From a candidate division TM6 bacterium GW2011_GWF2_28_16 (GTDB lineage Bacteria; Patescibacteriota; Microgenomatia; UBA1400; PJMF01), in assembly GCA_001029715.1 (NCBI GenBank), contig CP011212.1, forward strand, positions 769,066 to 833,065: 64,000 nt of DNA. Direction: 5' to 3'. Position 1 is the first letter of the stretch. Every line of letters begins with the position of its first letter. Made by a program: the position numbers and the translations under genes. Below are positions 35,631 through 58,300 of the stretch, piece after piece. Under the pieces are notes generated by a model, which was not told the DNA's origin, ran no database searches, and saw only the letters and a list, made by a program, of their open reading frames with translations.

Positions 35631-37115
35631 ATGCAAGACCAAGACATCGCTCAAGATCTAAAAAGGATTTATCAAGAAGACAAGAAACTACTCGAGGAAA
35701 CTCAAATCCCAATCATCACTGTTTCTGCTTCTTTTAGAGAAGATTTAAAAGGTTTGCATCACCAAAAAGAAGAAGACAAAAGCACTGACATCGTGCTTTC
35801 CCGTGCCCATTATTCCATGGCGCTTGGAGTGGCCATGCAAGCTTGGGGTGAAAAGATTGATCCTAAAAAAGCTTGGTTAGTTGACAGCACCAACTACGTT
35901 AACAATGAAGATTTCAAAGGCGTACAGCTAACTAACATTATTGGTAAAATCATTGCTCGCTGGCCAATGCTTAAAACTTTTAAAGACGTAGTCGATAAAT
36001 TTGGTCGTTCTAAAATGCCAATTCTCGATAATGTTACTCCTCCTACTCTTTACTTAGGCGCTGGTGTTAAAAAAACTATCTTGTCCTTTCACATTGTGAC
36101 CGGCAATATCTTAGCAGCAGAAGGTAAAAAAGTTATTCAAATGATTACCGATCCACATGTGAGAAGCGATTATTTAGAAAATGCCCATCGCAAAAACATG
36201 CAGTTTTTGGTTTTTGATGAAGCCACCAAAGCAGATTTTTGGAGAGTTGCCAAAGAAATTGGTAAAAGAATTCCTAAGGAGCAAGTTGCTAATAAAGTTA
36301 TTGTCACTGGCCCACCAATTGATCCAAGGATTGTCGACTGTAATAAAAGTAAAAATATTTGGAACAAAGATCAAGCTCTTAAGGTTTGTCTTACCACTGG
36401 CGGGCTAGGCACTAACAAAACTGAAATTAAAGAAATTTTGGAGCAACTTTTGCCAGAACTAAAAAAGCAAGCTACTGATCAAAAAACAGATTTGCCAACC
36501 ACAGAATTAATTTTTTATGCTGGCACGCACAGCGATCATAAAGATATGGCAGTCCGAATCGCTAAAGAGAACAATCTTTTGTATCAAATAATCAGTCCAA
36601 AAGATCCAGCTCACTTTGGTATTAATGACAAAATTGAAACCACTCCACATAAAAAAACCGAAACAACTAGAGCTAAATTTAGAATCATTTATCATCCACA
36701 GATCGTTGATGCTAATGAATTGCTAATTCAAAAAGGCTTTCCTTGGGCCGACGTTTTTATTAGTAAACCATCTGGAGATATGGCTTATGACGCCGTTGTC
36801 TCTGGAGCTGCTCTGCTTACTCTTAAAGAATGGGGTGAATGGGAATTTAACGTTAGAGCAGTTTTTGAAAAAAATGGTACCACTAAGCAAGCTCAAACAG
36901 ACCAGATTGTCAAACAATTAATAGAAATTACTCAAAGCAATGGCTCCACTTTTGAAAGTAATAAAGTTATTGGATCTAAACTACCAAGTCCAAATATAAA
37001 GGATGAAGCTCAATCTTCCTGGTTGGAAAAAGCCATGCAAAATGCGAAAAAACTAGATAAAGACTTCTATCAGGGTGCTAAAAACATCTTGAAAGCTGTC
37101 AAAGAAAGTAATTAA
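35631..37115 (+). CDS. putative GT-B glycosyltransferase (MurG / MGDG-synthase / GT28-like fold)
   Basis: 494 aa. 'LTTGGLG' after a Rossmann-like stretch and a C-terminal 'ELL...KPSGDMAYDAVVSGAALL' segment resembling the GT28 C-domain. Assignment is tentative. Confidence 0.35.
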   Translation: MQDQDIAQDLKRIYQEDKKLLEETQIPIITVSASFREDLKGLHHQKEEDKSTDIVLSRAHYSMALGVAMQAWGEKIDPKKAWLVDSTNYVNNEDFKGVQLTNIIGKIIARWPMLKTFKDVVDKFGRSKMPILDNVTPPTLYLGAGVKKTILSFHIVTGNILAAEGKKVIQMITDPHVRSDYLENAHRKNMQFLVFDEATKADFWRVAKEIGKRIPKEQVANKVIVTGPPIDPRIVDCNKSKNIWNKDQALKVCLTTGGLGTNKTEIKEILEQLLPELKKQATDQKTDLPTTELIFYAGTHSDHKDMAVRIAKENNLLYQIISPKDPAHFGINDKIETTPHKKTETTRAKFRIIYHPQIVDANELLIQKGFPWADVFISKPSGDMAYDAVVSGAALLTLKEWGEWEFNVRAVFEKNGTTKQAQTDQIVKQLIEITQSNGSTFESNKVIGSKLPSPNIKDEAQSSWLEKAMQNAKKLDKDFYQGAKNILKAVKESN

Positions 37116-38057: not shown

Positions 38058-38963
38058 TTAACCAGCGATCTCCTCTACCCATTCCTTGACTTTGTGACCG
38101 TATTTTTCGTTTTCGATCACAAATTTTAAATGAGCTTTGAAATAATTTTCTGGATCACCAGTGGTCATCCACTTACTGTCGTTTTTAACCACTAAAACTT
38201 TCTTTCCAGATTGCTTGAGTTTTTCGATTGCGTCCACTGTCCAAAGTTCGCCATCCTTACCAGTGCTATTAATTGTCAAATAGTCAAAAATAGCTGGTGT
38301 TAGTAAATAGCGACCATAGGAAGCTAAATTGCTAGGCGCCTCTTCCACGGATGGCTTTTCGACAATATTAACTAAAAAATTTTCTTGACCCTCATGATAA
38401 CTGCCATCTTGTAAAGAAACTATTCCATATTTAGAAACCTCTCCTTTCTGGATCTCCTCAGCCATGATGATGGCAGCAGCGTCATTATATTGATGATAGT
38501 TGTCAACTAAAGTTTTAGCTGCACCTGGGCTACCAAAAACCACATCATCACTATAAATAGCTAAGAAAGCATCTTCGCCCTCTACAAAAGCCTTGGCTGA
38601 AGCAATTGGTGAACCATTGCCGTAAGGCAAACTCAAGTCCTGAGTGATTACGGTAATTTTTGGATAATCTAACACTCGCTGTACAGATTCGTAGCGATCT
38701 TCCTTGCCCTGGGCAGCTAACTGTTTACGAATGCGGTTAACATTATTGTTAAAGTAGTCTTCATAAATTGGTTTTCCCTCAGGAGTAGCAACAATGATAA
38801 TTTCTTCAATCCCTGCTTCAACACACTCTTCAATCACGAATTGCATGATGGGACGATTGCCCATTGGCAACATCGCTTTTGGCACAGTTTTAGCGATTGG
38901 CAAATAACGACTAGCAAAACCAGCGTCGGTGATAATTGCTTTACGAACCAATTTTTCTGACAT
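38058..38963 (-). CDS. galU: UTP--glucose-1-phosphate uridylyltransferase-like sugar nucleotidyltransferase
   Basis: 'AIITDAGFASRYLPIAKTVPKAMLPMGNRPIMQF' matches the GxGTRxLPxTKxxPKEMLP N-terminal signature. Confidence 0.7.
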   Translation of the reverse strand: MSEKLVRKAIITDAGFASRYLPIAKTVPKAMLPMGNRPIMQFVIEECVEAGIEEIIIVATPEGKPIYEDYFNNNVNRIRKQLAAQGKEDRYESVQRVLDYPKITVITQDLSLPYGNGSPIASAKAFVEGEDAFLAIYSDDVVFGSPGAAKTLVDNYHQYNDAAAIIMAEEIQKGEVSKYGIVSLQDGSYHEGQENFLVNIVEKPSVEEAPSNLASYGRYLLTPAIFDYLTINSTGKDGELWTVDAIEKLKQSGKKVLVVKNDSKWMTTGDPENYFKAHLKFVIENEKYGHKVKEWVEEIAG

Positions 38964-39038
38964 AAAAATTCACCTTTCTAAATAAGTTCTAAAAGTATAA
39001 CATAACAAAGGACTTGACCTAAGAGTGAGAAGTCAGTT

Positions 39039-39416
39039 ATGCTTGAGATAATGCCTTCAAAAAAAATCACTAAACAAAAAAAGAACGAAATTGAATCAAA
39101 TCTCATTCTCTTTGGTCTTTTGCTCGTTTTAATTCTCTCCGTAATTACTTTTTGGCACATTAGCTACAAAAAAAACCAGACAAATAGTGCTGAAACTTCC
39201 GCTATAAACCAGGAACTGGCGCAAAAAGCCGACATTGATCAAGATGGAAATATTGATGAAAAAGATGCTAAACTGATTAAAGAGGCTTTTTTGAAGAGTG
39301 ATGTTGAATCACTTAAGGCTGATCTAAACCAAGATAATAAAGTCGATGCTAAAGACTTCTCACTGTTCAATAAAATCTTTAACTTAAAAGAGAAAGAACA
39401 AAATGACTCCAAATAA
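39039..39416 (+). CDS. small membrane-anchored protein with two dockerin-like calcium-binding repeats
   Basis: N-terminal helix 'LILFGLLLVLILSVITFW'; 'DIDQDGNIDEKDAKLIKEAF' and 'DLNQDNKVDAKDFSLFNKIF' resemble dockerin type I D-x-D-x-D-G-x-(I/V)-D repeats. Confidence 0.45.
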   Translation: MLEIMPSKKITKQKKNEIESNLILFGLLLVLILSVITFWHISYKKNQTNSAETSAINQELAQKADIDQDGNIDEKDAKLIKEAFLKSDVESLKADLNQDNKVDAKDFSLFNKIFNLKEKEQNDSK

Positions 39417-41331
39417 AAAGAAAAATCACCTCGCCATTGTCGGGTTGTTTATTGTTGTTTTCATTATGTCTATTTCCTTGTTAGCAGTCATGTTTCTTAA
39501 GAAACCTGTTTCAGAATTGAGTTTAGACACTAGGAAAGAAGCTATGGTTGATAGTGGTTTAGTTGAATTGGATACTTATCCTTTTAATCAAAGTACTCTG
39601 AAGGTCAAAGAAGAGCAAAAAATTAATCTTCAAATCAATACCAAGGATAAATCAGTCGACGCTGTGGAACTCATTTTTGAAGTCATCGCCGATGAGGGTT
39701 TATTAGATAAAAGTAAAATTAAGCTTACTGGTACCATTCCAGAAGAACTAGAAGTTGGCAAACAAGAAATCATCGATAGTGTTTGTTCCAAAGATTGTTA
39801 TACGGTTACCCTTCTCCTCAATATTAAAGATTCAAACCAAGCTTTTGCCACTCATGATCAAATGGCTACCATTTCACAACTTAGCTTTACTCCTCAAAAA
39901 GAAGGTAGTCTAAAAATTAAAATCAGCCAAGATAGCACTGCTATTGAACACGAAAGCAGCAGCGACGTGTTACAAAAACCCTCTGTACTAGACTTTCAAT
40001 ATTATGTAACTAACAATGGCATTGATCCTTCTCAATGTTATTACCAATATACTTCCTGGGGAGATTGCAATAATGGTTGGCAAACCAGACAGTATTCTGT
40101 CGAACCAGACAACTGTTATTGGTATGAAAAAGAAACTCTCAAAGAATTAAGTCAAAAATGCGTTGATAGCGATGAGGTCAGCGCCAATAATAGCTATTTT
40201 TATCTTTATTCAACTAACAATTGTTTTAATCAGGCAACCACTGGTGAAAATTTTTATATCATTTGGAATGATGATAAATATGACAATGTAACATGGGTCG
40301 ATGTCAGCACTAGTAATAGCTTCAGCAATTTTTATCATAAAAAAGTTGAAGGCAACATTGATCAAACCAATGGAGACTGGTTGATGATTAATGCCAAAGG
40401 TTTTACAGATGCTACTGATGACAGAGGAACATTAATTTTTGAGCCAGATGAGGATTATTATTTCCGTCTATACAGCACCGATAATGACGGACAACACATC
40501 TCCTCAGTTCATTATTATGTAGCTTATTGTAGCGGAGACCAAAGTATCTATAAAAACTGTAATGATGCTTGTGGTGCTAACAGCGACCAAGGTAAAAGTT
40601 GTGCTCCAGGAATGACTTGTTATGAGGGCAGTTGTCGTAATGAAAACAACCCTAGTGATTCTAGTTGTTTACCGATTTTAGGAACTCAATTAAGTAATCA
40701 AAGTTGTAATCAATATTGTGCCAGTAATAATGATTGCTCCGCTGGCTTAAGTTGTTATTGGAATAGTTGTCGCAATCCATTAAATCTAAGTAGTACTTCT
40801 TGTTCCGTCACAACTACTTATTCATCTGCAACCACTAGCAAAAGCACTCTCTTACCCAGTGAAGCTTATGATCTAAGTACTTACAGTTGTAATCATGGTT
40901 GTAATAATAATCGTGACTGTGAAGCCGATATGCGTTGTTATAAAGGTAGCTGTCGCTTAGCAGATGATCCAGAAAATATTGCTTGCGTAGTCAGTGCGAC
41001 TGAATTAAACAGCAAAGACGCAAGTTCTAGCAGTAGTGCAGCTAAAATTGTTAAACCTAGCACCACTCCAATTACTGACACTAACAGCAAAGACACTCAA
41101 AGTGGACTGAACAAATTTTTGTCTAGTTTTTCCTGGCAATGGTTGGCTATTGCTGGGGTGATCTTACTTGTCGCGATTTCCCTGATTATTAGCTCAATTG
41201 CCAAAGCCAAAAAAGATCCCTGGACTAATCATATTAAAATGATCAACGAGAATGATATTCCTCAAAAACCAGAGCCAGAAAAAACAACTGAAACCATAAA
41301 AATTCCAGAAGATAAACCTTTGCAATTATAA
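39403..41331 (+). CDS. cell-surface protein with three Cys-rich repeats and a C-terminal membrane anchor
   Basis: N-terminal hydrophobic segment. Three repeats of C-x5/6-C-Y-x-G/N-S-C-R-x7-C ('CAPGMTCYEGSCRN', 'CSAGLSCYWNSCRN', 'CEADMRCYKGSCRL'). C-terminal helix 'WLAIAGVILLVAISLIISSIAKAKKD'. Overlaps the upstream gene by 14 nt. Confidence 0.55.
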   Translation: MTPNKKKNHLAIVGLFIVVFIMSISLLAVMFLKKPVSELSLDTRKEAMVDSGLVELDTYPFNQSTLKVKEEQKINLQINTKDKSVDAVELIFEVIADEGLLDKSKIKLTGTIPEELEVGKQEIIDSVCSKDCYTVTLLLNIKDSNQAFATHDQMATISQLSFTPQKEGSLKIKISQDSTAIEHESSSDVLQKPSVLDFQYYVTNNGIDPSQCYYQYTSWGDCNNGWQTRQYSVEPDNCYWYEKETLKELSQKCVDSDEVSANNSYFYLYSTNNCFNQATTGENFYIIWNDDKYDNVTWVDVSTSNSFSNFYHKKVEGNIDQTNGDWLMINAKGFTDATDDRGTLIFEPDEDYYFRLYSTDNDGQHISSVHYYVAYCSGDQSIYKNCNDACGANSDQGKSCAPGMTCYEGSCRNENNPSDSSCLPILGTQLSNQSCNQYCASNNDCSAGLSCYWNSCRNPLNLSSTSCSVTTTYSSATTSKSTLLPSEAYDLSTYSCNHGCNNNRDCEADMRCYKGSCRLADDPENIACVVSATELNSKDASSSSSAAKIVKPSTTPITDTNSKDTQSGLNKFLSSFSWQWLAIAGVILLVAISLIISSIAKAKKDPWTNHIKMINENDIPQKPEPEKTTETIKIPEDKPLQL

Positions 41332-41399
41332 ATTTATAAGCCAACTTGAAAAAAAACCCATCTACGGATAAAATTCGAAGGACAAGATAGATCATTTTT

Positions 41400-41582
41400 A
41401 TGTTTACAAAAATTAAAAAATACTTTAGAGAAGTTATCACAGAGCTCAAGCAAACCTCTTGGCCAAGTAAAAACGATACTAAGAATATGACCCTGCTTGT
41501 ATTTTTAGTAGCTACTCTACTCGCCCTGTATCTTGGAGGGCTCGATTTTCTCCTACAAAAAATCATGGGAATTCTGATATAA
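41400..41582 (+). CDS. secE: preprotein translocase subunit SecE
   Basis: 60 aa with a single C-terminal transmembrane helix, immediately upstream of nusG. Confidence 0.7.
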   Translation: MFTKIKKYFREVITELKQTSWPSKNDTKNMTLLVFLVATLLALYLGGLDFLLQKIMGILI

Positions 41583-41620: not shown

Positions 41621-42241
41621 ATGACTGACCAAATGCAAATACCAGAAGTGCCAGAAGTCCAAGAAGTAAGAGTTCAATCTCCTAACTTAGTGAACATCTC
41701 TGATGTCGACAACAAGAAAGCTCGTTGGTACGTAGTGCACGTTTATTCTGGACATGAAAAGAAGATCGCTGAGGCCTTGCGCCAACGTGCTCAAACCTTG
41801 CATTTAACTGATAAAATTATTCAAGTTTTAATTCCTACTCAAGATAAAATTCAAATTCGTCGTGGCATGCGCAAAACCGTTAGTGAAAAGATTTTCCCAG
41901 GATATATGTTGGTTAAATTGGAAATGGCTGACGATGTTTGGTTGGCAGTGCGCACCACTGATGGTGTGACCGGCTTTGTTGGTATGAGTAGTAAACCTAC
42001 TCCACTCCCAAAAAGCGAAGTTGAAGCAATCATGAAATATACTGAACAATCTGGCGAAGCTTCTTACAAAGCTGACTTTGTCGATGGCGAAGCCGTCAAA
42101 GTGGTTGAAGGACCATTCAATGACTTCTTAGGCAGTGTTGACAAGATTGACGAAGAAAAAGGCAAAGTTACGGTCTTGCTCAACATCTTCGGTAGAGAAA
42201 CTCCAGTGGAATTGGATTTCTTGCAAATTAAGAAAGTTTAA
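41621..42241 (+). CDS. nusG: transcription termination/antitermination factor NusG (with N-terminal extension)
   Basis: NGN domain 'WYVVHVYSGHEKKIAEAL' and C-terminal KOW 'GEAVKVVEGPFNDFLGSV'. Confidence 0.85.
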   Translation: MTDQMQIPEVPEVQEVRVQSPNLVNISDVDNKKARWYVVHVYSGHEKKIAEALRQRAQTLHLTDKIIQVLIPTQDKIQIRRGMRKTVSEKIFPGYMLVKLEMADDVWLAVRTTDGVTGFVGMSSKPTPLPKSEVEAIMKYTEQSGEASYKADFVDGEAVKVVEGPFNDFLGSVDKIDEEKGKVTVLLNIFGRETPVELDFLQIKKV

Positions 42242-42336: not shown

Positions 42337-42759
42337 ATGGCAAAAAAAATTAAATCAGTTCTAAAACTCAATCTACCAGCTGGCACAGCAACTCCAGCAC
42401 CTCCAGTCGGTCCTATTTTAGGTCAGGCAGGTATCAACATGATGGATTTCTTGAAACAATATAATGCTGCTACTGCTGATCAAAAAGGTCAGGTTATTCC
42501 AGCAGAAATCACTGTTTTTGAGAACAATTCTTTTACTTTTGTTTTGAAATTGCCTCCAGTCTCTGACTTGATCAAGCAAACCCTCAAAATGAAAGCTGGT
42601 AGTTCTACTCCAGGCAAAGATAATAAAGCTAAAATCACTATGGATCAAATCAGAGCAATTGCTGAAAAGAAATTGCCAGACATGAATACTGAAAATATTG
42701 ATTCTGCTATGCAGAGTATTATTGGTTCAGCTAGATCCATGGGTGTTGAAGTCGTTTAA
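42337..42759 (+). CDS. rplK: 50S ribosomal protein L11
   Basis: 'KLNLPAGTATPAPPVGPILGQAGINMMDF' L11 N-terminal domain signature. Confidence 0.9.
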   Translation: MAKKIKSVLKLNLPAGTATPAPPVGPILGQAGINMMDFLKQYNAATADQKGQVIPAEITVFENNSFTFVLKLPPVSDLIKQTLKMKAGSSTPGKDNKAKITMDQIRAIAEKKLPDMNTENIDSAMQSIIGSARSMGVEVV

Positions 42760-42828: not shown

Positions 42829-43557
42829 ATGGGAAGCAAAAAAAATGTCGACATGTCCGCAACTGAGACTGAAATCAAAGTCGTCGAGGCAACTGAAGTA
42901 AAAGAAGAGACTGATTCTCAAGGCGAAGCAAAAGTCGAGAAAAAAATCACTAAAGCCAAAAAAGTTCGTGGCAAAAAATATCAAGCTGTCCGCTCTCAAT
43001 TGGATAAAAGCAAATTTTACACTGCCAAAGAAGCAGTTGAATTGGTGAAGAAACTTTCTTACACCAAATTTGTTGGTTCAGTTGAAGCCCACATCGTGGT
43101 TAGAGAAATTGGCGATAGTGTCAACATCGCTCTTCCTCATTCCACTGGTAAATCTGTCAAAGTCACCGTCGTTGACGCTCAAGTTTTAAGCGACATCGAA
43201 GCTGGCAAAATTGACTTTGATATTTTGGTCGCCGCTCCTGAATTTATGCCAAAATTGGCTAGATTCGCTAAAGTTCTTGGACCAAAAGGCCTCATGCCAA
43301 ATCCAAAAAGTGGCACCCTGACCCCAAATCCAGAACTTAAGAAAAAAGAGTTGGAAGCCGGTAAATTCAGCCTTAAAACTGAGAAAAAAGCTCCTCTCAT
43401 GCATTTGATTATCGGCAAAACCGATATGAAAAGTGCCGACTTATTGGCAAACATCGAAGCTTTAGTCAAAGCTTTGAAGGGCAAAATTCTTAAATTAAGT
43501 ATTGCTGCCAGTATGAGTCCTGGAGTTAAAGTTTTAGTTGAAGAAAGTGAAGAATAA
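42829..43557 (+). CDS. rplA: 50S ribosomal protein L1
   Basis: Overall L1 pattern ('KKYQAV...KFVGSVEAHIV', 'APEFMPKLARFAKVLGPKGLMPNPKSGT'). Confidence 0.9.
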   Translation: MGSKKNVDMSATETEIKVVEATEVKEETDSQGEAKVEKKITKAKKVRGKKYQAVRSQLDKSKFYTAKEAVELVKKLSYTKFVGSVEAHIVVREIGDSVNIALPHSTGKSVKVTVVDAQVLSDIEAGKIDFDILVAAPEFMPKLARFAKVLGPKGLMPNPKSGTLTPNPELKKKELEAGKFSLKTEKKAPLMHLIIGKTDMKSADLLANIEALVKALKGKILKLSIAASMSPGVKVLVEESEE

Positions 43558-46554: not shown

Positions 46555-48645
46555 TCAACCCGCTCCGCCACCACCACCTCCACCTCCACCGCCACCACCT
46601 CCAGAAAAACCTCCACTTGAACCACCTCCAGAAGCACCATAGCTGCTAGTGGCTGAGCTAGTCAGATTGGCAAAAGCACCGCCCAAAGAATTCAGCGAGT
46701 CAGTCAAAGAACCTAAGTTAATAGCACTTAAATTACCTACTGCGGAGCCATGTAAACTATCAAAGCTAGCAACTCCCCAATAGGTTCCCAAAACTCTTTG
46801 GTCAGCATCTGAGAAATGTACTGGCAATTGTGATAAAGCTTTCATCGACACTCCAAACAAAGTCCCATAAACCAAATATTTCTCCCACAAAATCACGCTA
46901 TCGATCGAATAGTCTTTAGTTTTTTTATAATCGAACATATGTTTTTTAAAAGCTTGCCACGCGCTAGCCTCTTCCCAACCTTTTTTAGTTCTTTTTTGGG
47001 CAAAATGTTGCAGCATAGAAAAAACCATTCCGATCGTAAAAAAGAGCAATAAATTAATTACAGCTAGAAATAAACCGATAGTAACTAAACTTGTGGTTTT
47101 TACTGATGGCTCTCCTTCTAACAAGTTACCAAGCATAAACAGGAGAATAAAGCTAAAAACAGGCACTAGAAAGACCCGTAGAGCCGAAAAACTTCTTGCG
47201 TAATCATAAGAATCTCTTTCAAAAAAACCTTGGCTAAGACCGCTATCTAAAGATGTTTTTTCCAAACCCTTAAAAAAGTTATAACTAGAAGAAGGATTAC
47301 TCTTAATATATTGGCTAATGTCGGTTAAAGCTAAGCGTCTTTTGGTTTTTTCAGTTGGTGTGGCGCTTAAAGCTCCTCGCTTTGTCCAGGTTTGTTCTTT
47401 TTCATCAAAAAATTGAAGATAACTTTTAGCAATTTTTTCAGTCAAAAACTCATAAACTTCCTGCTCCACTGCGGCTAATTCACTGGGTGAACGATTGGTT
47501 TTTTCCAAGAAATATTTGTACTCTTTGTGCAAAAAACCTTCTTTCTTATTGCTGCGAGTGATTTTGAAAAGTTTTTTAGCCACCAAAGACAAAACAGAAG
47601 CGGTAAAAACCTTTGGACTTAAACTTTTAGTCGCAGATAAAAGTTGTACCACCAAAGCTGGCTCCAAATCACTAGGTGGTTCCCAAACTCCACTTAAATT
47701 TTTTAATTTTTTATCTTTGCCCAAACGTAAAAACTTGGAAAACTCAACTACACTCAGGAAAACTCCAAGTAGAAAAAGCAATATCGTTGCTAAAAGATAG
47801 AGCAAACCCAAACGTTCGTTTTTCTTAACTTTAGCAATTGTTTCATCAATAAAAGATTGCTCCTCTTCTAAAATACTCGCTTCATTTGAAGAACCATTGA
47901 TTTCTCTCAAAAACATATTTGTTGGTAATAAAACTCTCCCTTCAAAAAACTTTCCAACTGGCAAGCGATCAGCCTGCAAAGAGACGAGATAAAGTCCAGT
48001 CTTTTCATCTGGCAAAGCAGAAATACTCACTTTCGCATTAAGTGGACCATGGCCAAAAGCCTTAACGCTATCAAGCTGGCTGGCCAAAATTTCTTTTGGC
48101 AAATAAATATCAACTTTGATGTTTTGGCTTGACACTTCCCAAGCATCACCAATAAATTGCCAATAAAGTTCAGCTATGTCTATGTGCTTAGTAATAGCAT
48201 TGCCAACTTTATAGCTCAAAACAAAATCTTTAACTTCGTAATTAGCCTGAAAGTGCCACTCTAAAAAATATTTGTCGCCCCGATCATCGATCAGAAAAGT
48301 ATTATCAGGATTGTTTCTGGGTTCTACTAAATTAGCTGAAGCCGTAGCCAAAGCTTTATAACAAAGCTCATTATTTTTTTCACAAAGCTTGAAATCGCTC
48401 AAAACATAAGGCACTTCTCTACCGTCGTTGCCTGGAACTTTGTTAATTTCTTGATAAACAAAACGATAATCACCTTGGAAATTAAATTGGCGCTCTTCCG
48501 TCACATCCATTGAGCCATCTTTATTGATGAAGGCTTGAATATTAACTGTGTCGATACTGTATTCTTTAGCAAAAGCACTACCAGAAAAAATGAAGGTAAG
48601 AATGAAAAATAGAAATAAAATTTTTTTATTCATAGCGTAAAGCAT
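46555..48645 (-). CDS. DUF2207-like membrane protein: signal peptide, large extracytoplasmic domain, transmembrane helices, C-terminal Gly-rich tail
   Basis: N-terminal 'KKILFLFFILTFIFSGSAFA', central hydrophobic helices, C-terminal 'GGGSSGGFSGGGGGGGGGGGGGAG'. Overlaps the upstream permease gene by 20 nt. Confidence 0.5.
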   Translation of the reverse strand: MLYAMNKKILFLFFILTFIFSGSAFAKEYSIDTVNIQAFINKDGSMDVTEERQFNFQGDYRFVYQEINKVPGNDGREVPYVLSDFKLCEKNNELCYKALATASANLVEPRNNPDNTFLIDDRGDKYFLEWHFQANYEVKDFVLSYKVGNAITKHIDIAELYWQFIGDAWEVSSQNIKVDIYLPKEILASQLDSVKAFGHGPLNAKVSISALPDEKTGLYLVSLQADRLPVGKFFEGRVLLPTNMFLREINGSSNEASILEEEQSFIDETIAKVKKNERLGLLYLLATILLFLLGVFLSVVEFSKFLRLGKDKKLKNLSGVWEPPSDLEPALVVQLLSATKSLSPKVFTASVLSLVAKKLFKITRSNKKEGFLHKEYKYFLEKTNRSPSELAAVEQEVYEFLTEKIAKSYLQFFDEKEQTWTKRGALSATPTEKTKRRLALTDISQYIKSNPSSSYNFFKGLEKTSLDSGLSQGFFERDSYDYARSFSALRVFLVPVFSFILLFMLGNLLEGEPSVKTTSLVTIGLFLAVINLLLFFTIGMVFSMLQHFAQKRTKKGWEEASAWQAFKKHMFDYKKTKDYSIDSVILWEKYLVYGTLFGVSMKALSQLPVHFSDADQRVLGTYWGVASFDSLHGSAVGNLSAINLGSLTDSLNSLGGAFANLTSSATSSYGASGGGSSGGFSGGGGGGGGGGGGGAG

Positions 48646-51193
48646 TTAAAGCTGAAATTTTTGTAGCTCTATAAGACGGATACATACCTGTAGCAACAGC
48701 GATAATGAAAGAAAGTGCCACTACACCCGCACCTAAATAAAATGGGATATAAACCAATTGAATGTAGCCGAGCCCTTTAGTTACAGAAATCATTGATAAA
48801 ATCAAACTAACCAATTGACCTGCCAAGGAACTAATTAAAAGTCCACACACCCCTCCAGACAAACCCATAACAATCGACTCTGCCAAAAATAAACGTTTCA
48901 CTTCATTTGATTTCATACCAATAGCCTTCATTAAGCCAACTTCTCTAGTTTTCTCCAAAAGTGAAACTGTTAGCGTATTAAACATTCCAAGCGCAGCAAC
49001 ACTTAAGGCCACCATGCCTAAAATTGAAAGCACAAACCTCACAGTATCAAACAAATCATTAATCTTACCCACTGTATCTACTACTGAGCTAGTTTGAAAA
49101 CCACTGGATTCAATACTTTGACGAATTTGATCAATTTTGTTTTGATCTTTAACTACAACTTTAATTTGAGAATAATTTTCTACTCCTAGACCCTTAATAT
49201 CATTAAATGGCATATAAAAAGCTGGCGTTTTTTCATCAGGAATAACAGCTACAATTGTAAAATCAGTTGGAGCAGATTCTGCCTGATAATCTGCCTTAGA
49301 AAAGAATTCTTGATCAAGCATAAAAGTAGTGTTAAAAACTTTCCCAACTGCATCAGCTTCATCAATTGCTAAAATTTTGAGCATAGCTCTATTAACTACG
49401 GCAACTTTTTGTGCCGACTCACGTAAAGGAATAACTTCTCTTTTTGTAATTGAAGCAGATGAAGAACCATCGCCCATACTATTCCAGTCCAAAGTACCAT
49501 CAGGCAATTGTTGCGCCATCAAAATAGTTCCATCTGCTAAAGCAATCTGACCACTATCGCTAGCCTCTTCTGAATCACTAGCTAAAGCACTTCCACTTGA
49601 TGAAGCACTGTTGGCAAGAGCACTCTCAATATTCTCTGCCAAAGATGCGCTAGCAGTTGATTCTCCTAAAACTTGACCGAACATTAGTGGTTCATCCATA
49701 TCTTCAATTAATACTCTATCTGCTCTTATATATGCTATTGCTTCTTTTTGTTTATTGTTGTCATCTAAATCTCTTAAATAAGTGTTATCACAAGTCTCTC
49801 CGCAATCAACTTTCTTCCAAAGTGGCAAACTCGCTCTCACCCAATAACCGACATTTTTGCCATTAACATTGCTGCCTACATTGCCCCAACCACTCTCGCT
49901 GTAATAAGATTCTCCATAAACTAATTCTCCAGAAATTAATAAATCATTTGTTTGAGAAGCATAAGTATTAAGAATCTGTTTGTCTTTAAAAACATCCGAG
50001 TAAAGTTCAATATATTTATTTTTGCCAATACTAAAGCTAATTGACTCGACTGTATCTCCCTCTATAAAACTTGGAAAAGCCGAAGCTAAAACTTTATATC
50101 GATCAATACTCATACTATCCTCAGTCATGTATCCTTGAATCAATTCTTGTCCATTTCCAGATTTAATAACTTGATACTTGCCGTCTACACAACCAAGCTC
50201 ATTTTCATCACAGATTCCACTCTTCCAGAGTGGCACAGTATCAACTATCCATGGACTGAAAACATTACTAAACAAATCGATGCCTTCGATTAAAGGTTCG
50301 CTGGTCTCATAAGACTCCCCCCAAACCTCACTTGCTTCAACATCTCCAACTCCTCTACTCGTGTAACCAAGAATTTTGGATTTTGTACTAGGCTCCGTAT
50401 AAACTGGCTTCCAAACCAATGGATAAATTGAGTAACGAGCTTGAGATAGCTCCTTTCCCAATTTTGCGCCACTCAAACGTTTAATAACTGCACCAGCAAC
50501 CTGACCAACAACATCGTCGTTTGATTCTATTTCTGCGGAGAGCTCCTTGTCTTCAAAAAGCGTCCCTTTAACTGGCTGAATAGCCGATTGTTGCAAAAAT
50601 TCTTTAGTTACTCCGTAAGCAACTACATCTGAAACAGAGTTGTTATAATTAACTTTAGAGACAATAGAAATCATTGGAATAACTAGCTCCACTCCTTCAA
50701 TATTTTTTAAATCATCCAAAGTTTTATCATTGATCGTTAAAGAAGCAGATTGACCGATGGTGACATTAATCTGTTTCATTTCATCTAATCTAGCTACTCT
50801 CGAAATAACTAGTTTTTGGACGCCATAGCCTAAAGATAATAAAAACACCACTGCTCCAAAGCCAATAGCCATGCCACCAATAGTAATAATAGTGCGGGTC
50901 TTCTTTAATTTTAAATGTCTGACAGCTAAATGTACTAAATCTAAAGAAGAAATTTCGCCCTCATCTTTGGAGTTAAGAGGTCCAATGATTTTTTTATAAA
51001 TAGTTTTAACTGGTTTTCTAAATGGGTTAGCAAGAATTCTAATAATTGGCCAATGACTAATAAATTTCAGAACATCAAAAAAAAGATAAATAATGACAAT
51101 TAAGAAAAAACGTAAGAAAAAGAACAACTCCTTAACAAAAGCAATGTAATTAAAACTCTTAAGCTTGGAAAGAAAGGATTTTAGTTTTGTCAT
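48626..51193 (-). CDS. MacB/FtsX-type ABC transporter permease with a very large (~600 aa) extracytoplasmic domain
   Basis: Transmembrane helix 1 'IITIGGMAIGFGAVVFLLSLGYGV', then a long soluble insert, then an FtsX 3-helix bundle at the C-terminus ('MKAIGMKSNEVKRLFLAESIVMGLSGGVCGLL'). Overlaps the ATPase gene by 4 nt. Confidence 0.7.
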   Translation of the reverse strand: MTKLKSFLSKLKSFNYIAFVKELFFFLRFFLIVIIYLFFDVLKFISHWPIIRILANPFRKPVKTIYKKIIGPLNSKDEGEISSLDLVHLAVRHLKLKKTRTIITIGGMAIGFGAVVFLLSLGYGVQKLVISRVARLDEMKQINVTIGQSASLTINDKTLDDLKNIEGVELVIPMISIVSKVNYNNSVSDVVAYGVTKEFLQQSAIQPVKGTLFEDKELSAEIESNDDVVGQVAGAVIKRLSGAKLGKELSQARYSIYPLVWKPVYTEPSTKSKILGYTSRGVGDVEASEVWGESYETSEPLIEGIDLFSNVFSPWIVDTVPLWKSGICDENELGCVDGKYQVIKSGNGQELIQGYMTEDSMSIDRYKVLASAFPSFIEGDTVESISFSIGKNKYIELYSDVFKDKQILNTYASQTNDLLISGELVYGESYYSESGWGNVGSNVNGKNVGYWVRASLPLWKKVDCGETCDNTYLRDLDDNNKQKEAIAYIRADRVLIEDMDEPLMFGQVLGESTASASLAENIESALANSASSSGSALASDSEEASDSGQIALADGTILMAQQLPDGTLDWNSMGDGSSSASITKREVIPLRESAQKVAVVNRAMLKILAIDEADAVGKVFNTTFMLDQEFFSKADYQAESAPTDFTIVAVIPDEKTPAFYMPFNDIKGLGVENYSQIKVVVKDQNKIDQIRQSIESSGFQTSSVVDTVGKINDLFDTVRFVLSILGMVALSVAALGMFNTLTVSLLEKTREVGLMKAIGMKSNEVKRLFLAESIVMGLSGGVCGLLISSLAGQLVSLILSMISVTKGLGYIQLVYIPFYLGAGVVALSFIIAVATGMYPSYRATKISALNALRYE

Positions 51194-51945
51194 GACTTTT
51201 CTGCCCTTCCTATATTACCTCTTTTAGAAACGCTGAGTTTTTTTAGACGCTCATCATTGGCTGAATACTCACCAACTACAACTCCATCGGCCATATTAAC
51301 AGATCTTGAAGCAAACTTAAGATATTCCAAATCGTGAGTAACCATAATGACTGTTTTTCCCTTATCATTAGATTGCTTAAATAAGGCCATAATGTCTTCA
51401 CTAGCTTTTGAATCCAAATTACCAGTTGGCTCGTCTGCCACGATCAAAGCTGGATCAGAAATCAAAGCTCTAGCTAAAGAAACACGTTGCTGCTGACCAG
51501 ATGAAAGTTCGGCAGGATTTTGGAGAGCACCTTGCTCCATGCCAACCATTTTTAAAACTTCCATCGCTCGTTTTTCTCTTTCTTCTTCTGGCAAACCACG
51601 CAGAGTTAAAGGGAAGTATACATTTTCAATAACGTTGAGCGATTTTACCCAGTTAGATTGCTGATAAATAATTCCAACCTGTTGCTTTCGCATTTGCGCA
51701 CGTCCATCTTCGTCAAAAGCATCGTAAATATTCTTGCCTAAGAAAATTACTTCTCCTTTGGTTGGAGGCTCCAAACCAAGCAAAATATTTAGCATAGTGC
51801 TCTTACCACAACCAGAGGGACCAAATAAAATCAAAAAATCACCCTTATTAACTGAAAAACCAGCTCCTTTAATAATCTGAGTTTCCTGAGTTCCCAGATT
51901 AAATGATTTATGAATTTCAGTTAGTTTAAGTATTTGTTCTGCCAT
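51190..51945 (-). CDS. ABC transporter ATP-binding protein (MacB/LolD-like)
   Basis: Walker A 'GPSGCGKST', signature 'LSSGQQQRVSLARAL', Walker B 'IVADEPTGNLD', H-loop 'VTHD'. Confidence 0.85.
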   Translation of the reverse strand: MAEQILKLTEIHKSFNLGTQETQIIKGAGFSVNKGDFLILFGPSGCGKSTMLNILLGLEPPTKGEVIFLGKNIYDAFDEDGRAQMRKQQVGIIYQQSNWVKSLNVIENVYFPLTLRGLPEEEREKRAMEVLKMVGMEQGALQNPAELSSGQQQRVSLARALISDPALIVADEPTGNLDSKASEDIMALFKQSNDKGKTVIMVTHDLEYLKFASRSVNMADGVVVGEYSANDERLKKLSVSKRGNIGRAEKS

Positions 51946-52344: not shown

Positions 52345-55300
52345 TTACTTAGTTCCTAAAAATCCAAATATCAAAGACATATTGGAAACCACCAAATCTA
52401 AGGCATTGTCCGTAGCTTTTGGAGTAATTACTACTTTATCAACTGACTCTCCCACATTACTATACTGATCTTTTGATAAGGCTCGCAAGTGATAAACCTT
52501 CGATGGAGTTAATCCAGAAATAACAACTATATGGTGACTTGTTAAGGAAGCATCTTCTTGAGTTTTTTGTGAATAAGTTGAACCACTACCCTCTCCAAAC
52601 TCAATTTGGGCAGATGCTGGTTCATCCGTGTTAAACGAAACTAATAATTGAGCGGTTGATTCTTCTCCTACTCCAAGAATTTCTCCTTCCACTCTGAGAT
52701 CACTAATTTGAGGAGGCCTACTATCTGCCGAGGTTGCAATCTGTTGGAACTCACCAACAGCTTCATTACCAACGGCATCTTTACCTTTGATTAAAATTCC
52801 ATAAGTTGTCTGTGAATCAAGATCATAAATAATCATTTGATGTTTACCAGACTTAAGAGCAAGATTGACTTCGTCTTTGGCTGCCCCCGGAGCGGTAACT
52901 GGATAATAGGTTACAATTGAAGAAATACTGGTGTTTGATTCCCAAGTAACTAATAGAGTCGATCTAGCAGTCCCTTTAACTTGACTCACTTTAATATTTT
53001 TGATTTTTGGTCTTGGTAAAGTTTCGAATGAATGAATTTCACCCTCATATTCTTCACCCTCTGAGTCAAAAGAGTTAATTTTGTAATAATATTTAGTGCC
53101 ATCTTTCAAGTCTGAAAGTTGCACAGTGTGCGTACCCTCTCCAGAGCCAGTCACTACATTTTCGATTCCGCCAAAAGCAGATGATTCACCAAAATAAACT
53201 CTAACGCTAGCAGCATTTTTTGATATAAATTGAATTAAAGCACTGTCCAAACCCATACTTTTTACCTGAGGTTCTTCTGTTGTTGGAGCTGGCTCTGTAA
53301 CAAAAGTTGCTTCAGCAGACTCACCAGTGTTTCCATCTTCATCCGTCCATTTAGCAATATAATAGTAAGTAGTTCCCGGAGAAAGGTTGAGTAAGTTTAA
53401 TGCATGATTAGTTGCTTGAATGGAATTTGAAACTTCTTCATCAAAATAATCACCAGGACTCGTTCCATAAGATATCCTCGAATCAGCTGTTCTTGCTGTG
53501 GACCAAGCAACAGAAGCTTTTTTAGTGGTCACATTTGAAACCACTGGCTCAGATACTAGACCAGCTGGTTCAATAAATTTTCCATCTGGAAATAATTCAA
53601 CCACTTCAGAAAATGCACCACAATTATTAGTGCTATCACAAACTTTGACTTTGTAATAATACTCTTGCTGAATCAAACCAGTATCAACGTAAGAAATACC
53701 ACCACTAGTAGCTATTTGAGCAAATGTTTCACCATCTATTGATCGATAAATAGCATAATGATCAGAAATACCACCCTCCGACGGAGCTTCCCAAGACAAA
53801 GCAATCTTCCAAGAGCTAGTGGCTTTAACAGAAACATCAGCAATATCCATATTAAGTGGAATTCCTGGAGCAGTGGTGTCTGCTGTAAAGATAACCGACG
53901 CATAATTTGAGTAATTTATGTTTCCCGCTTCGTCTTTAGTCACAATATAAAGAACATTTTCACCTGGTAAAGTTGCATAAGCCCCAGCAACTAAATTTCT
54001 TACACTAGTTCCAGTGGTACTATGGGCTGTTGGCAATGCATTAATACTGTAATAATAAGACAAATTAGAAACTGAGCCATAATAAGTTCCTGTTGCTGGA
54101 GGATCCCAACTAAAAGCAAAGGAATTTTCCGTATTAGATGATGGCGTGACTACTAAATTAGTTGGAGGTGCTGGAGCATTGCCGCTATCTACATAATAAT
54201 ATGGTGTAGATGCGTAATCACTATAGTTACCAGCCTCATCTTTACTACGAACATAAAAAGTATTCGCTCCCACTTTATGTGAAGGTATACCAGTGACAGA
54301 AGTGCTAGTGATACATTGATCTTCTGCATAAGTTCCTGAAGTGGCAGCAGTTTTATAACAATATCCAGTAATCTGTGCTCCACTGCTGGTGGACTCACTC
54401 CAAGAAAAATCAAAACTATCCGTAGCTGAATAGCCAGATGGATCAGCCGATAAATCAGCTGGAGCGGCTGGGGGTCGCGAATCATATTTATAAATGAAAG
54501 GTGCCCAAGCTTCTGCTGAAACATTTCCAGCATTATCAATCGTCTTAACTCTCAAATAATAAGTCTCTCCATCGGTCAAATTGCTAGCAGAATAGTTGCT
54601 ATCAACTTGAAGCGAACCGTCTTCTTCTGGATTTGCTGATGAATTTGTTCCAAAGTAAACATAATATCCAGCTACCCCTGAACCAGTACTTGTATCAGAA
54701 GCTCCATCTGTAGATTCTGCATCTGGCCAATCAAAATATGGATTACTATGCCCATACCAATTTGAGGAAACTATTGCCGTTCCAGGATCACTATTGCTAT
54801 AAGTAGCTAAACCAGAAGTTTGTGGATTTGTTGGCGCAGAAGTGTCTTTGTAATAATTAACCGTATAATCATTAATAACGCCAGAATAGACGCCATCTGA
54901 TGATGAAAGTTCAAATTTTATTTCAAGGTAACGAGCTGCTGGAGACTTAATTTCATAAATATAGCTTGAACCATTCTTCTTCTCAGAGGCTACTGCAGTC
55001 CAAGACGACCAAGTACTATTGTCAGCAGAACTGCGTGTTTTAATGCTAAGAGAAGCGTTATTTGCTAAAACATAATCAACTTGTAAATTTATCCATTTGT
55101 AGACTGAATCTAAATCGTGAGAAACAGAAGTATAAGTTCCCTCTTCTTCAAAAGAAGAAGTAGCTGTCTCCATAATGTATGTATAAATTCCATTGTCATA
55201 ACCACCAGTGCCGGTACCAGATAGCATAAAAACTTTGTCCACTCCATTACTTTCACCAGATCCACCAACATAAATTTTAGAGGGTGCATTGCCTAATTGA

Positions 55301-58300
55301 GTCCAATTGTTATCTACCACTGAATATTTATAAAAATCATTATCATTTTCACCTCTAGCAGCATAGATATTTCCATCTCCACCGTAAGTCGCGAAGCCAT
55401 CATTGTAAACATCTATATTCAGGTCGCTAACAGCTGGATCACTCCAAGTATTGCTTGCAATGTCATAGCGATAAAAAGGATTATTGGCTACGTTTTGGCC
55501 CCTTAAGGTATAAATATAGTTATTACCATCAAAAACCAGCTCAGCTCCATAACCCAAACCAGCAGGCGAAGCAGTCATAGTAGACCATTTGCTACCAGCA
55601 CTACCCTGCGTATCAAATCTATAGAAAGTAGTATTTGCTCCACCCCTATTTAAATAAATATAACGAGATCCGTCATAAGCCATAGAGCTACCATAATCTG
55701 TAACAGCAAGAGTTGGATCATCAACTTCTTCAGACCAAGTATTCGAAGCAATGTTATAAACATAAAATCTTTGTAAATAATAGCCACCAGTTAGATAAAT
55801 TTTATTTTGCGTACTATCATAAACTAATGAAGATCCAGAATAAGTCCCAGTAGGAGTTGAAGCCAGTTTTTGCATTGACCCAGTGCTCGAATCATAACGC
55901 ACAAAATCATCTGAATAGTTTCCTTTGGTTAGATAAAAATAATTACCATCACCCTTAACAAGATCTTCTCCATAGCCAGGATATACATAGTCCGTACCTT
56001 GATATGTTGTCCCGAACAAACCTACATTAGGGATTAGCCAGCTATCCTTTGAAACACTATATTTATAAAAATTAGTTCTATTGCCACCAATAATGGCATA
56101 TAAACTGTCACCAACATTTTTAAGATTGGCTCCATAATAAAAGGTGTATGGGGCTGAAGAAACCTCCTCCCAAGTTTGATCTGAAGTTTTAAACTTATAC
56201 ATCTTGTCAGAATAATAACCAGGAACAAAATAAACTGCCTCCGCGCTTGGAACGTATTCTATTGACGATCCTAAATAAGATAATTGAGGTAAATCTGGCA
56301 GAACCGCCCAAGAATTTGAGTTCATATTATAAACAGCAAACCCATCGCGAATATTACCTTGAGTAGCATAAACAAAACCATTTTCTCTATCTATTGCTAG
56401 GTCAGCTCCAATATAAGCACTATTATTAACAGCATTGGTAGTAGCACCAAAATCTAAGTTTGATAAAGATTCCCAACTATCCCCAACAGCGTCATATCTC
56501 CAAAAAGCATCATCATTATTTCCACGCATTACATAAACGTGTCCAGAACCGTCATATTCCATGGAAGCACCATAATAAACTGCTAAAGGGGCGTCACTTG
56601 CATCTTCATCACTCCAAATATTGTTTTCTATGTCATAACGATAAAATGAAGAAGTATTATTACCACGCAAACCATAAAGATAACCGTCTGGTCCTTCCAC
56701 TACTCCACCGCCAATATAAATATTTCCTGGAGCATTAGCTAAAGTCGACCAAGTATCACTAGCTAGATCGTAACCATAAAAAGTTGCTACATTTGCACCT
56801 CTAAAAGCAAAAAGCTTGTTTAATGATGCAACGTAGGCTGTATTTTTTGCTCCATATTGCATAGTTGCTGGAACATTACTTAATGGCTCTTGTAACCAAA
56901 AACCTCCCTCTCTGCTAGCTAATTTTAGTTGATTATTGCCTGTGTTAATTTCATCAGCAGTACCAACAAAATCAGTTATTGTTAAACTTTGCGGTGGCGA
57001 AATACCTGCATAAACATAAGTGAATATTGTGCTTGCATCACTAATATTCCCATAGCTATCTTTTGTTTTAATTCTTAAATAATAAGAACCAGTACTTAAG
57101 CTTTCAGTTACAGTGTAATTACTATTTGTCTGAAAAAATCCTACTGATTCTGGATCAGCTACTTCATTACTACCAAAATAAACATAATATCCAGCAACCT
57201 CAGATTGCGCATCGGTTGCTCCACTCCATGAGAAGTAGGGGCGAATATAATTATATGTTTCTCCACTAGTCAGTGCTATACCAGCAACCTGCTGAGAGAG
57301 ACCACTAATGGCATCTGGATTGCTTGGTGCCAAAGTATCACCTGCATAAGAAATACTAATCTCACTTAACGTCGGGCTACTAGCAGAGCCGCTTGAAGCC
57401 ACCAGTGTTGCTTTAACCTGAATAAATCTTTGAGCTGGAGAAGAAATCACTCCGCTCGCCACAACAACCCAATCACTCCAAGATAAAGCGTCACTACTAG
57501 TTCTAGTTTCATAAATAATACTGCTATCGTCTGGAGTTGATGAGGTAGCAGAAAAAGCAGTAAAACTAGAAACGTAAGCTAGATCTTTAATTTCAGAGGT
57601 CCATGATCCAGTGGCATAATACTTATTTGCTGCAGGAGTATAAGTGAGAATATTTTGGCGACCATTTCCATAAGAAATATAAAAAGAATTATTGCTATCA
57701 TATTCAATAGAAGCACCTGCATAAACTCCATTATCCTGAGCATAATAACCAGGAATACTCTGCAATTTCCTCCAATTATCTAAAGAAATATTGTACTCAT
57801 AAATGTCTTTTTTGTACCAACCTGCCAAAGCAACAATTTTTCCATCATGGTAAGCAAGATCGGTGCCGTAAAATGGAGCAAATGGAGGCTTAGCAACTTC
57901 TGTCCATACATTGTCATTAATTGTATATTTAAAAAATCTGCTAATACCAACTCCAGGAATATAGAATATATCAGTACCATCAGAGATAAGACGAGAACCA
58001 TACGAAGACTCTGCATCCACAGGTAAATCAGCCACTGAGACATCATCCCAAGAGTTTCCAGAAATACTGTATCTCCAAAAAGAATTAGTGGTAGCTCCAC
58101 GCGTTGCATAGATATAATCTCCAGAACCAGGATAGGATAGAGCTCCTCCAAAACGCACTGTAGTTGGCGGAGCAGTCATCGTAGTCCAACTGTCTCCTGA
58201 AGGACTGTATCTATAAAAACTATTAGTGTTCCCGCCTCTAAAAAAATAAAGATCAGAACCAGCTACTACTCCTTTGACATCATCTGTCATTGTTCCTGGA

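Follow-up and report, generated by a model that had tools for sequence, protein, structure and literature searches.

The pair of overlapping genes described here lies in a 64,000-nucleotide stretch of DNA (the window: contig CP011212.1 of assembly GCA_001029715.1, positions 769,066 to 833,065) from the genome registered as candidate division TM6 bacterium GW2011_GWF2_28_16, which GTDB places in the Patescibacteriota, Microgenomatia. Both genes are found on the + strand: the first (39039..39416) encodes a small protein of 125 aa, composed of a membrane helix and a dockerin module; the second (39403..41331) encodes a large, Cys-rich envelope protein of 642 aa, with a cohesin-like domain and a transmembrane (TM) helix at each end. 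The two open reading frames (ORFs) and the 14-nt overlap between the end of the first and the start of the second (39403..39416) are located where the original prediction had placed them, and the overlap would allow translational coupling of the two genes. Two starts are possible for the small gene, 39039 and an alternative ATG at 39051 (Met5), the latter yielding a product of 121 aa, the length given in public gene calls (P0059); a promoter-like element around the beginning of the small gene (TTGACC-18-TATGCT; window 39014-39052, last base 39043) puts the start of the transcript at about this second ATG, suggesting a leaderless or near-leaderless mRNA and the 121-aa product. The best reading of the locus is that of a minimal, non-cellulosomal, membrane-anchored cohesin-dockerin pair of a Microgenomates-group bacterium of the Candidate Phyla Radiation (CPR; Patescibacteria), in which the dockerin subunit is dispensable.

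The small protein contains a hydrophobic segment at residues 23-41 (39105..39161; Kyte-Doolittle window 2.57), bearing out the N-terminal membrane helix expected from the sequence; the flank preceding it carries a net charge of +2, with five Lys in residues 8-15, and because of this Lys-rich flank an N-in, C-out topology is the likely one. A linker of ~20 residues separates the helix from the dockerin module (residues 64-113, 39228..39377, as delimited by the Pfam alignment), which is made of two acidic loops of 12 residues, each followed by an amphipathic, helix-type segment: loop 1 at residues 65-76 (39231-39266; D65-I-D-Q-D-G-N-I-D-E-K-D76) and loop 2 at residues 95-106 (39321-39356; D95-L-N-Q-D-N-K-V-D-A-K-D106). 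The two segments are those of a type I dockerin, D65, D67, D69, D73 and D76 in the first and D95, N97, D99, D103 and D106 in the second occupying loop positions 1, 3, 5, 9 and 12, and calcium binding by both loops would be expected. In an alignment of 16 diverse family members D65, D69, D76, D95, N97, D99, D103 and D106 are invariant, and positions 3 and 9 of loop 1 are either D or N. The Pfam Dockerin_1 profile (PF00404) matches the protein with an E of 3.3e-12 and 46.8 bits, against a gathering cut-off of 22.9, covering profile positions 2-55 of 57; the type I dockerin proposed in the original prediction is thereby upheld, and the rejection by profile searches that had been named as the outcome speaking against it did not occur, the match being well over threshold. 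Nearly all of the 53 homologues in this family (77-155 aa) have a Dockerin_1 match on record. On the evidence of the sequence, the dockerin assignment can be taken as genuine, far past chance or generic Asp-rich loops. An FtsL-like NCBIfam match to the TM region (E 0.016) was dismissed as similarity between hydrophobic segments.

For the large protein no family is available in Pfam or NCBIfam, its 58 homologues are all unnamed or hypothetical (the closest, 99% identical, is encoded on a 751-kb contig), and the comparison of the whole protein with the PDB by phmmer returned noise only. The AlphaFold model of this protein (m5a48470f2f06), built on an alignment of 34 sequences, displays at residues 52-200 (39556..40002) a β-sandwich with a predicted local distance difference test score (pLDDT) of ~90, whose fold resembles that of solved cohesins: in a Foldseek search of the PDB the top ~27 matches were nearly all cohesins, with E between 1e-7 and 1e-5 and a probability of 1.00. 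With the whole model as query, the best match was the cohesin-FN3 double module of C. perfringens GH84C (2w1n, E 1.2e-7); the other top matches include C. acetobutylicum CohA2, C. thermocellum CipA, OlpA and OlpC, R. flavefaciens ScaB, ScaC and ScaE, and the non-cellulosomal cohesins of C. perfringens and A. fulgidus. Searched exhaustively by profile, a set of 1.84 billion representatives yielded 34 clusters with this domain, which is always found directly after the N-terminal TM helix; when the profile was expanded to include distant members (A6), three PDB sequences were retrieved at E <1e-3, all of them R. flavefaciens ScaB cohesins (5m2s/5m2o/5aoz; E 6e-4 to 8e-4, over ~70 residues). Remote homology of residues 52-200 to cohesins is probable, and these residues constitute a previously unrecognised, divergent module invisible to current profiles; it is named "cohesin-like" because the fold is that of solved cohesins whereas the curated Pfam profile does not recognise it. 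The original prediction had proposed a search for cohesin-like partners of the dockerin: Foldseek and profile A6 make it very probable that this partner lies next door, in the N-terminal ectodomain of the 642-aa protein; the first outer domain of that protein being cohesin-like, it is the most likely docking partner.

The remainder of the large protein is a multidomain ectodomain held between two hydrophobic helices. The first, at residues 9-33 (39427..39501; helix 9-32 in the AlphaFold model, hydropathy 2.92 for segment 12-30), is more likely an uncleaved anchor than a signal peptide, because the hydrophobic stretch spans ~23 residues and no A-x-A site is present in it. The cohesin-like module is followed by a Trp-rich domain with four Cys (residues 201-258, 40003..40176; pLDDT ~80 in model mb011b1e5e932), in which C212, W219, C222, Q227, R229, C238, W240 and C253 are invariant (alignment A1), and by a tentative FN3/Ig-like β-sandwich (residues 259-377, 40177..40533; pLDDT ~90). 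A fold search with residues 196-380 gave no significant match for the Cys/Trp domain and returned weak FN3/Ig matches alone, the best with an E of 0.013; a thrombospondin type 1 repeat, considered in view of the W..C..Q.R pattern of the Cys/Trp domain, found no support from any tool. Three six-Cys modules then follow at residues 386-422 (40558..40668), 435-467 (40705..40803) and 496-528 (40888..40986), in a protein totalling 26 Cys; they conform to the pattern C-x3-C-x(5-9)-C-x5-C-Y-x-(G/N)-S-C-R-x9-C, so that the three repeats expected from the sequence were found, with an ending of R-x9-C instead of the proposed R-x7-C. From one to three modules occur among the homologues aligned in A1: the first is missing in some of them, the second in those of clade B and in P0042-44, and the third, carrying the motif C-N-x-G-C-x-x-N-R-D-C...R-C-Y-x-G-x-C-R, is the invariant copy.

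A Ser/Thr-rich stretch connects the six-Cys modules to the C-terminal TM helix (residues 578-602, 41134..41208; seen in the AlphaFold model, hydropathy 2.80 for segment 581-599), which contains the conserved motif F-x-W-Q-W-L-A-x-A-G and is followed by the basic AKAKKD; both anchors originally predicted for the large protein are thus borne out by hydropathy. The 40 residues beyond the helix (603-642, 41209..41328; alignment A1) would form a cytoplasmic tail, a location favoured because of the basic stretch. The tail ends in I-P-E-D-K-P-L-Q-L (residues 634-642, 41302-41328), kept as I-P-E-(D/N)-K-(P/E)-L-x-L in both deep clades, and this end looks like a cytoplasmic short linear motif; in the wider superfamily the C-terminus reads instead S-M-M-x-R-(L/M)-K-x-K-G-(I/V)-K-P-P-(Q/G). 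Two other assignments were rejected, namely an OppC_N match to a TM segment of the large protein (22.8 bits, cut-off 23.9), attributed to similarity between hydrophobic segments, and sortase anchoring, given that no LPXTG precedes residues 578-602 and that the tail has 40 residues and a conserved end motif of its own. Across the superfamily the plan of the large protein is constant: a TM helix, the cohesin-like module, a variable middle, one to three Cys modules, a Ser/Thr/Pro stalk, a second TM helix and a cytoplasmic tail.

The two genes are embedded in a conserved gene order. Upstream lies a divergent galU-like gene for a UTP-glucose-1-phosphate uridylyltransferase (NTP_transferase in Pfam; 38058..38963, - strand); directly downstream of the large gene, on the + strand, are found secE (41400-41582, identified by Pfam) and, from the synteny tables, nusG (41621-42241), rplK (42337-42759) and rplA (42829-43557). 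This arrangement recurs across the Microgenomates, and an intact small dockerin gene is present within it in the closest dockerin-bearing clade (L006, L007, L011 and L012), in relatives at 45-50% identity (L004, L032 and L033), and in the whole clade at 31-35% identity (L001, L019-L026 and L043-L052). The 14-nt overlap is implied by the start and end coordinates of the genes in L006, L007, L011 and L012; elsewhere the coordinates give a 1-nt overlap (L001) or gaps of 9 nt (L004), 8 nt (L033) and 76 nt (L032), so that the tight overlap is restricted to the closest clade. Far relatives in L029 and L031, recognisable solely via the cohesin-like domain (E 2.5e-13 and 2.5e-6), keep the same neighbourhood; their upstream gene encodes a protein of 294 aa or 225 aa that begins with an anchor or signal peptide, is rich in Cys in its central part and ends in a Dockerin_1 domain (26.6 and 49.2 bits). 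The linkage between the two genes therefore extends far beyond the window genome, as the original prediction required, but it is not obligatory, the dockerin gene having been lost in several lineages (see below).

Modules of the two kinds are also found within single chains: P0121 contains two cohesin-like modules and a dockerin, P0137 a cohesin-like module, a β-helix and a dockerin, and a neighbour of P0121 combines Dockerin_1 with a Pfam Cohesin match under threshold (E 8.5e-4; 20.0 bits, cut-off 24.1). The deep synteny, taken together with these fusions, indicates that the association of the cohesin-like family with dockerins is old and recurrent. On other CPR contigs (L028:3840-6623 and L030:952-6676), cohesin-like and dockerin modules occur together in every member of clusters of adjacent proteins, and one such protein also carries a β-helix of the pectin-lyase type; these clusters hint at larger cohesin-dockerin networks in some Patescibacteria.

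Every locus examined contains the large gene. One clade of close relatives (L005, L008-L010, L013, L014, L017, L036, L037 and L040) lacks the dockerin gene, galU there lying directly against the large gene, and so do the P0042-44 lineage (L003) and P0112 (L034); overall, the dockerin gene was lost at least four times. None of the 53 members of the dockerin family was traced to the dockerin-less contigs, an indirect check for a relocated copy. The dockerin subunit is dispensable, and the large protein evidently works in its absence.

These losses provide a way to look for residues of the large protein that change along with the dockerin. In an alignment of 24 large proteins, 15 from loci with an intact dockerin gene and nine from loci devoid of it, 96 columns are invariant in the dockerin-keeping sequences, and Ala87 is the sole one of them to be replaced (by Y, S, K or Q) in all nine of the others; from the rates of change per lineage, 0.025 such columns would be expected by chance. 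The preceding residue, Asp86, is altered in all three loss lineages too. The two codons (39658..39663) belong to the motif V-D-A-V-E-L, at the beginning of the predicted strand β3 in the AlphaFold model. Predictions made from the motif before looking up the neighbouring gene were correct in three cases out of three (P0041 and P0039, both D-A, with a dockerin; P0112, S-Q, without). In the HMMER alignment of profile A6, A87 and E89 are paired with the Ala and the Asp of the ScaB cohesin sequence ISAMDVVF. The corresponding motif of the C. thermocellum cohesin contains Asn37 and Asp39, which lie on strand β3. These two residues are among the four contacting the Ser/Thr motif of the dockerin (PMC5772552). 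As a separate observation, Glu524 (40972-40974), in the third six-Cys module, is the only other residue that is invariant in the dockerin-bearing sequences and altered in all three dockerin-less lineages, the change being carried by one or more members of each lineage; Glu524 may be a second contact, or the pattern may be coincidental.

Taken together, these data make it fairly probable, in our judgement, that the dockerin and the adjacent cohesin-like module bind each other; surface docking, as put forward in the original prediction, stands as the best reading, the physical binding itself being what we infer. A number of observations weigh against it. The similarity of the predicted fold to cohesins is moderate (TM-scores of 0.5-0.69, target-normalised); Pfam Cohesin (PF00963) gave no match to the window protein, matched one of 18 family members with an E of 0.071 and none of 20 distant relatives, and the domain profile built from the family only (A5) had no match in the PDB. 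The co-variation at residues 86-87 draws on only three old, independent loss lineages, placed on a neighbour-joining tree without support values; moreover, the comparison by hhalign of A6 with a single C. thermocellum cohesin sequence gave a probability of 0.2 and is uninformative, so that the equivalence of A87 with Asn37 and of E89 with Asp39 stays at the level of a motif. In the locus of the far relative P0114 (JGI 3300042731), where the order is galU, X, the cohesin-like protein, nusG, rplK and rplA, X encodes a protein of 376 aa with PKD repeats, for which no dockerin is recorded. The dockerin gene is missing from about a third of the loci and, in a contig with ~97.5% DNA identity to the window (L035; JGI contig Ga0180007_10000001, 751 kb), it is destroyed: at L035:1348-1520, corresponding to window 39039-39416, two deletions totalling 260 nt have taken away the TM helix together with both loops, and what is left reads MLEMMKMLN*; the gene ends, the promoter region and the large gene are intact. 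Either the gene was lost very recently or this is a population variant; the D-A motif is retained in L035, as would be expected of a very young loss. Finally, the identity of the cohesin-like domain to that of the window is 66-76% in dockerin-less and 74-79% in dockerin-bearing relatives; being about equally conserved in both, the domain must do something for which this dockerin is not needed.

The last point speaks for the alternative that survives best, according to which the dockerin is real but docks onto another cohesin, carried for example by a different protein of the same genome, by a neighbouring cell or by a host cell; the first domain of the adjacent protein would then be cohesin-shaped in structure only, and the adjacency would be due to shared expression with the secE operon. 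The failure of Pfam Cohesin to recognise the domain would fit this proposal, and CPR loci encoding several cohesin- and dockerin-bearing proteins, such as those mentioned above, imply that multi-partner networks exist. Against it stand an adjacency kept over very deep divergence with different architectures of the dockerin proteins, the fusion of the same domain family to dockerins, and the alteration of Ala87 and Asp86 specifically in the dockerin-less lineages; in addition, the pair accounts for the only dockerin and the only cohesin-like ORF of the 64-kb window, as judged by Pfam and by the hidden Markov models (HMMs) of the two families. We regard this explanation as unlikely.

An account without docking was also considered, in which the dockerin-like module is a membrane-tethered pair of calcium sites of the EF-hand type that senses or buffers Ca2+ in the envelope, and the large protein is an independent Cys-rich surface or stalk protein. 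Dockerins are indeed relatives of EF-hands, and the small protein, which carries no other module and is dispensable, gives weak matches to EF-hand Pfam models; these, however, remain far under their own cut-offs, as opposed to a full two-segment dockerin profile well over its threshold, and neither the recurrent pairing and fusion with cohesin-like modules nor the site-specific co-variation would be expected for a free calcium sensor. This explanation is held to be decidedly improbable.

The position of the genes suggests a third possibility, namely that the large protein is an accessory of the Sec translocon encoded together with secE, with the dockerin protein as a modulatory subunit. In most of the loci examined the large gene ends 15-110 nt upstream of secE, and in the window no terminator-like site was found between the two (41331-41400); a promoter-like site is present before secE (41346-41374), so that co-transcription of the pair with secE-nusG-rplKA is possible but not imposed by the sequence of the interval. 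The conserved cytoplasmic C-terminal motif would also be compatible with such a role. The same promoter-like site speaks against it, however, as do the lack of likeness to known Sec accessory proteins in Pfam or NCBIfam and the fact that the bulk of the protein lies outside the cytoplasm, as an ectodomain of several domains rich in disulfides; furthermore, location beside core genes is common in the small genomes of CPR bacteria and is weak evidence of function. A Sec accessory is therefore considered very improbable. As to a cellulosome-like system for polysaccharide degradation, of which the co-occurrence of cohesin and dockerin modules is the hallmark (PMC12484212), it can practically be dismissed, since neither a catalytic nor a carbohydrate-binding module (CBM) is found in the dockerin protein, the large protein likewise lacks a CBM and carries just one cohesin-like module, and none of nine neighbouring ORFs scanned (among them the galU-like gene, secE, thrS, the DUF2207, ABC transporter and Kelch/FN3 genes and the ORF with a weak DUF6938 match) encodes a carbohydrate-active enzyme, so that the combination of a multi-cohesin scaffoldin, a CBM and dockerin-bearing enzymes is not found among the genes scanned.

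If docking between the two neighbours is accepted as the working interpretation, the pair may be pictured as follows. The small protein would cross the membrane with one helix, its N-terminus inside, and hold its calcium-loop dockerin ~20 residues outside; the large protein, inserted through a helix at each end, would expose its cohesin-like sandwich at ~20 residues from the first helix, followed by the Cys/Trp domain, the FN3-like sandwich, one to three knottin/DPY-like six-Cys modules and the Ser/Thr-rich stalk. Docking would be Ca-dependent and would take place in cis, on the β3-containing face of the cohesin-like module, tying both membrane proteins into one envelope complex, whose role may be that of an envelope scaffold, an adhesin or a stalk. 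With genes that overlap or lie close together, directly before secE-nusG-rplKA, the two partners would be expressed at matched and probably high levels. In distant relatives, the extra modules present in the dockerin proteins suggest that these act as cargo; in the clade of the window the dockerin protein is reduced to an anchor and a dockerin, and has repeatedly been lost. Combined into one picture, these elements describe a conserved, highly expressed core envelope complex of Microgenomates, co-transcribed with secE-nusG, in which cohesin-dockerin docking, repurposed to link two integral membrane proteins in cis, accommodates dockerin cargo subunits exchanged between lineages, the complex may serve these ultra-small cells as the stalk or adhesin for contact with a host, and the cohesin-like domain defines a new cohesin family, invisible to Pfam, with Ala87 as its single diagnostic interface residue; that the whole of this picture is correct is a tentative and rather doubtful proposition.

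Some other features of the window deserve mention. The original prediction had suggested a relation between the pair and a giant surface protein; the giant ORF in question (52345-59463, - strand, 2372 aa) encodes several Kelch β-propeller regions and FN3/Ig-like domains, and the absence of any cohesin or dockerin in it, as judged by Pfam and the family HMMs, leaves this relation without support. Between thrS and the giant ORF (46555-51945, - strand) are found genes for a DUF2207 membrane protein, a permease of the MacB/FtsX type with a periplasmic core domain and an ABC ATPase; the DUF2207 gene adjoins thrS in L001 too. A 494-aa ORF (35631-37115, + strand) gave a weak match to DUF6938 alone; ORFs of the same size (484-505 aa) occupy the corresponding upstream position in L001/L002, L003 and L004, those of L001/L002 alone sharing the weak DUF6938 match and, if these counterparts in size are homologous, this ORF is a second conserved unknown of the neighbourhood. 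A 93-nt "tRNA-Asn (anticodon att)" called by ARAGORN at 2884-2976 (- strand) lies inside a 790-aa ORF (1699-4071, - strand) and is a probable false positive.

Among the closest known systems are the single-cohesin anchoring scaffoldins OlpA and OlpC of C. thermocellum (3ul4, 4dh2), in which a single cohesin is carried by a surface-anchored protein and meets one calcium-loop dockerin; the two-segment profile is that of type I, and the cohesins of both proteins are among the best structural matches to the window module. OlpA and OlpC are anchored by SLH modules, whereas TM helices are the predicted anchors of the window pair, at both ends of the cohesin protein and in the dockerin protein itself; moreover, the window dockerin bears no enzyme, the cohesin of the pair is too divergent for PF00963, and the organism is a CPR bacterium that offers no cellulolytic context. 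Cohesins and dockerins working outside cellulose degradation are found in C. perfringens (GH84C, 2w1n; related 2jh2 and 2vo8) and A. fulgidus (2xdh), the former sharing with the window protein the succession of a cohesin and an FN3-like sandwich, tentative in our case. Systems of this type join soluble or secreted enzymes or toxins; in the window, by contrast, both partners are predicted integral membrane proteins, the genes are syntenic with secE-nusG, and knottin/DPY-like modules are found on the cohesin protein. That of A. fulgidus is a working cohesin-dockerin pair (PMC12484212). Adaptor or scaffoldin-type proteins, with cohesins and a dockerin in one chain, have the layout of the distant relatives P0121 and P0137, unlike the window pair, where the modules belong to separate products of adjacent genes.

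The six-Cys modules resemble the Dumpy DPY module (1oig, PF21164) and inhibitor-cystine-knot peptides (carboxypeptidase A inhibitor, conotoxin tx9a/gm9a) in the C-x5-C-x4-C-R hairpin and in Cys spacing, and differ from the DPY module of ~24 residues in having six Cys and a conserved C-N-x-x-C start. A profile of the modules (A7) compared with the PDB retrieved 1oig with an E of 4.8e-4, together with a likeness to knottins, and half of the modules (18 of 36) gave matches under threshold to Pfam Dumpy_DPY and CarbpepA_inh (best E 3.2e-5 and 2.2e-4, respectively, both under the curated cut-offs); homology to either group is unproven, the modules being short and dominated by Cys and the matches lying under the curated cut-offs. 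A parallel closer in taxonomy is SEML1_0315, a dockerin-domain envelope protein of Saccharibacteria reported to be essential in a transposon screen (PMC10633639); compared by its description only, it is, like the small protein, a dockerin-bearing envelope protein of Patescibacteria without a cellulosome, although the repeated loss of the dockerin protein in the window family makes it unlikely that the latter is essential.

That cohesins and dockerins occur outside cellulosomes is already known, both from PDB entries and from the literature (PMC12484212). Publications on these modules in CPR, Microgenomates and Saccharibacteria yielded passing mentions only and no account of this pair, and no published description was found of the syntenic pair, of a cohesin-like family invisible to Pfam, or of the anchoring of both partners by TM helices. 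To our knowledge, non-cellulosomal cohesin-dockerin biology is mostly unexplored, and most envelope proteins of CPR bacteria are without an assigned function. The pair represents a compact, evolutionarily traceable example of a cohesin-dockerin system in the Candidate Phyla Radiation; it gives a name and a testable partner to a conserved family of "hypothetical" membrane proteins encoded beside secE, adds a divergent cohesin family missed by current profiles, and yields, from natural gene-loss experiments, a prediction of the interface at Asp86/Ala87 on strand β3. Cohesin-dockerin pairs are among the tightest protein-protein connectors and are widely used as tools; if confirmed, the present one would mean that cohesin-dockerin docking is used in the assembly of membrane proteins, and may provide new orthogonal connector pairs.

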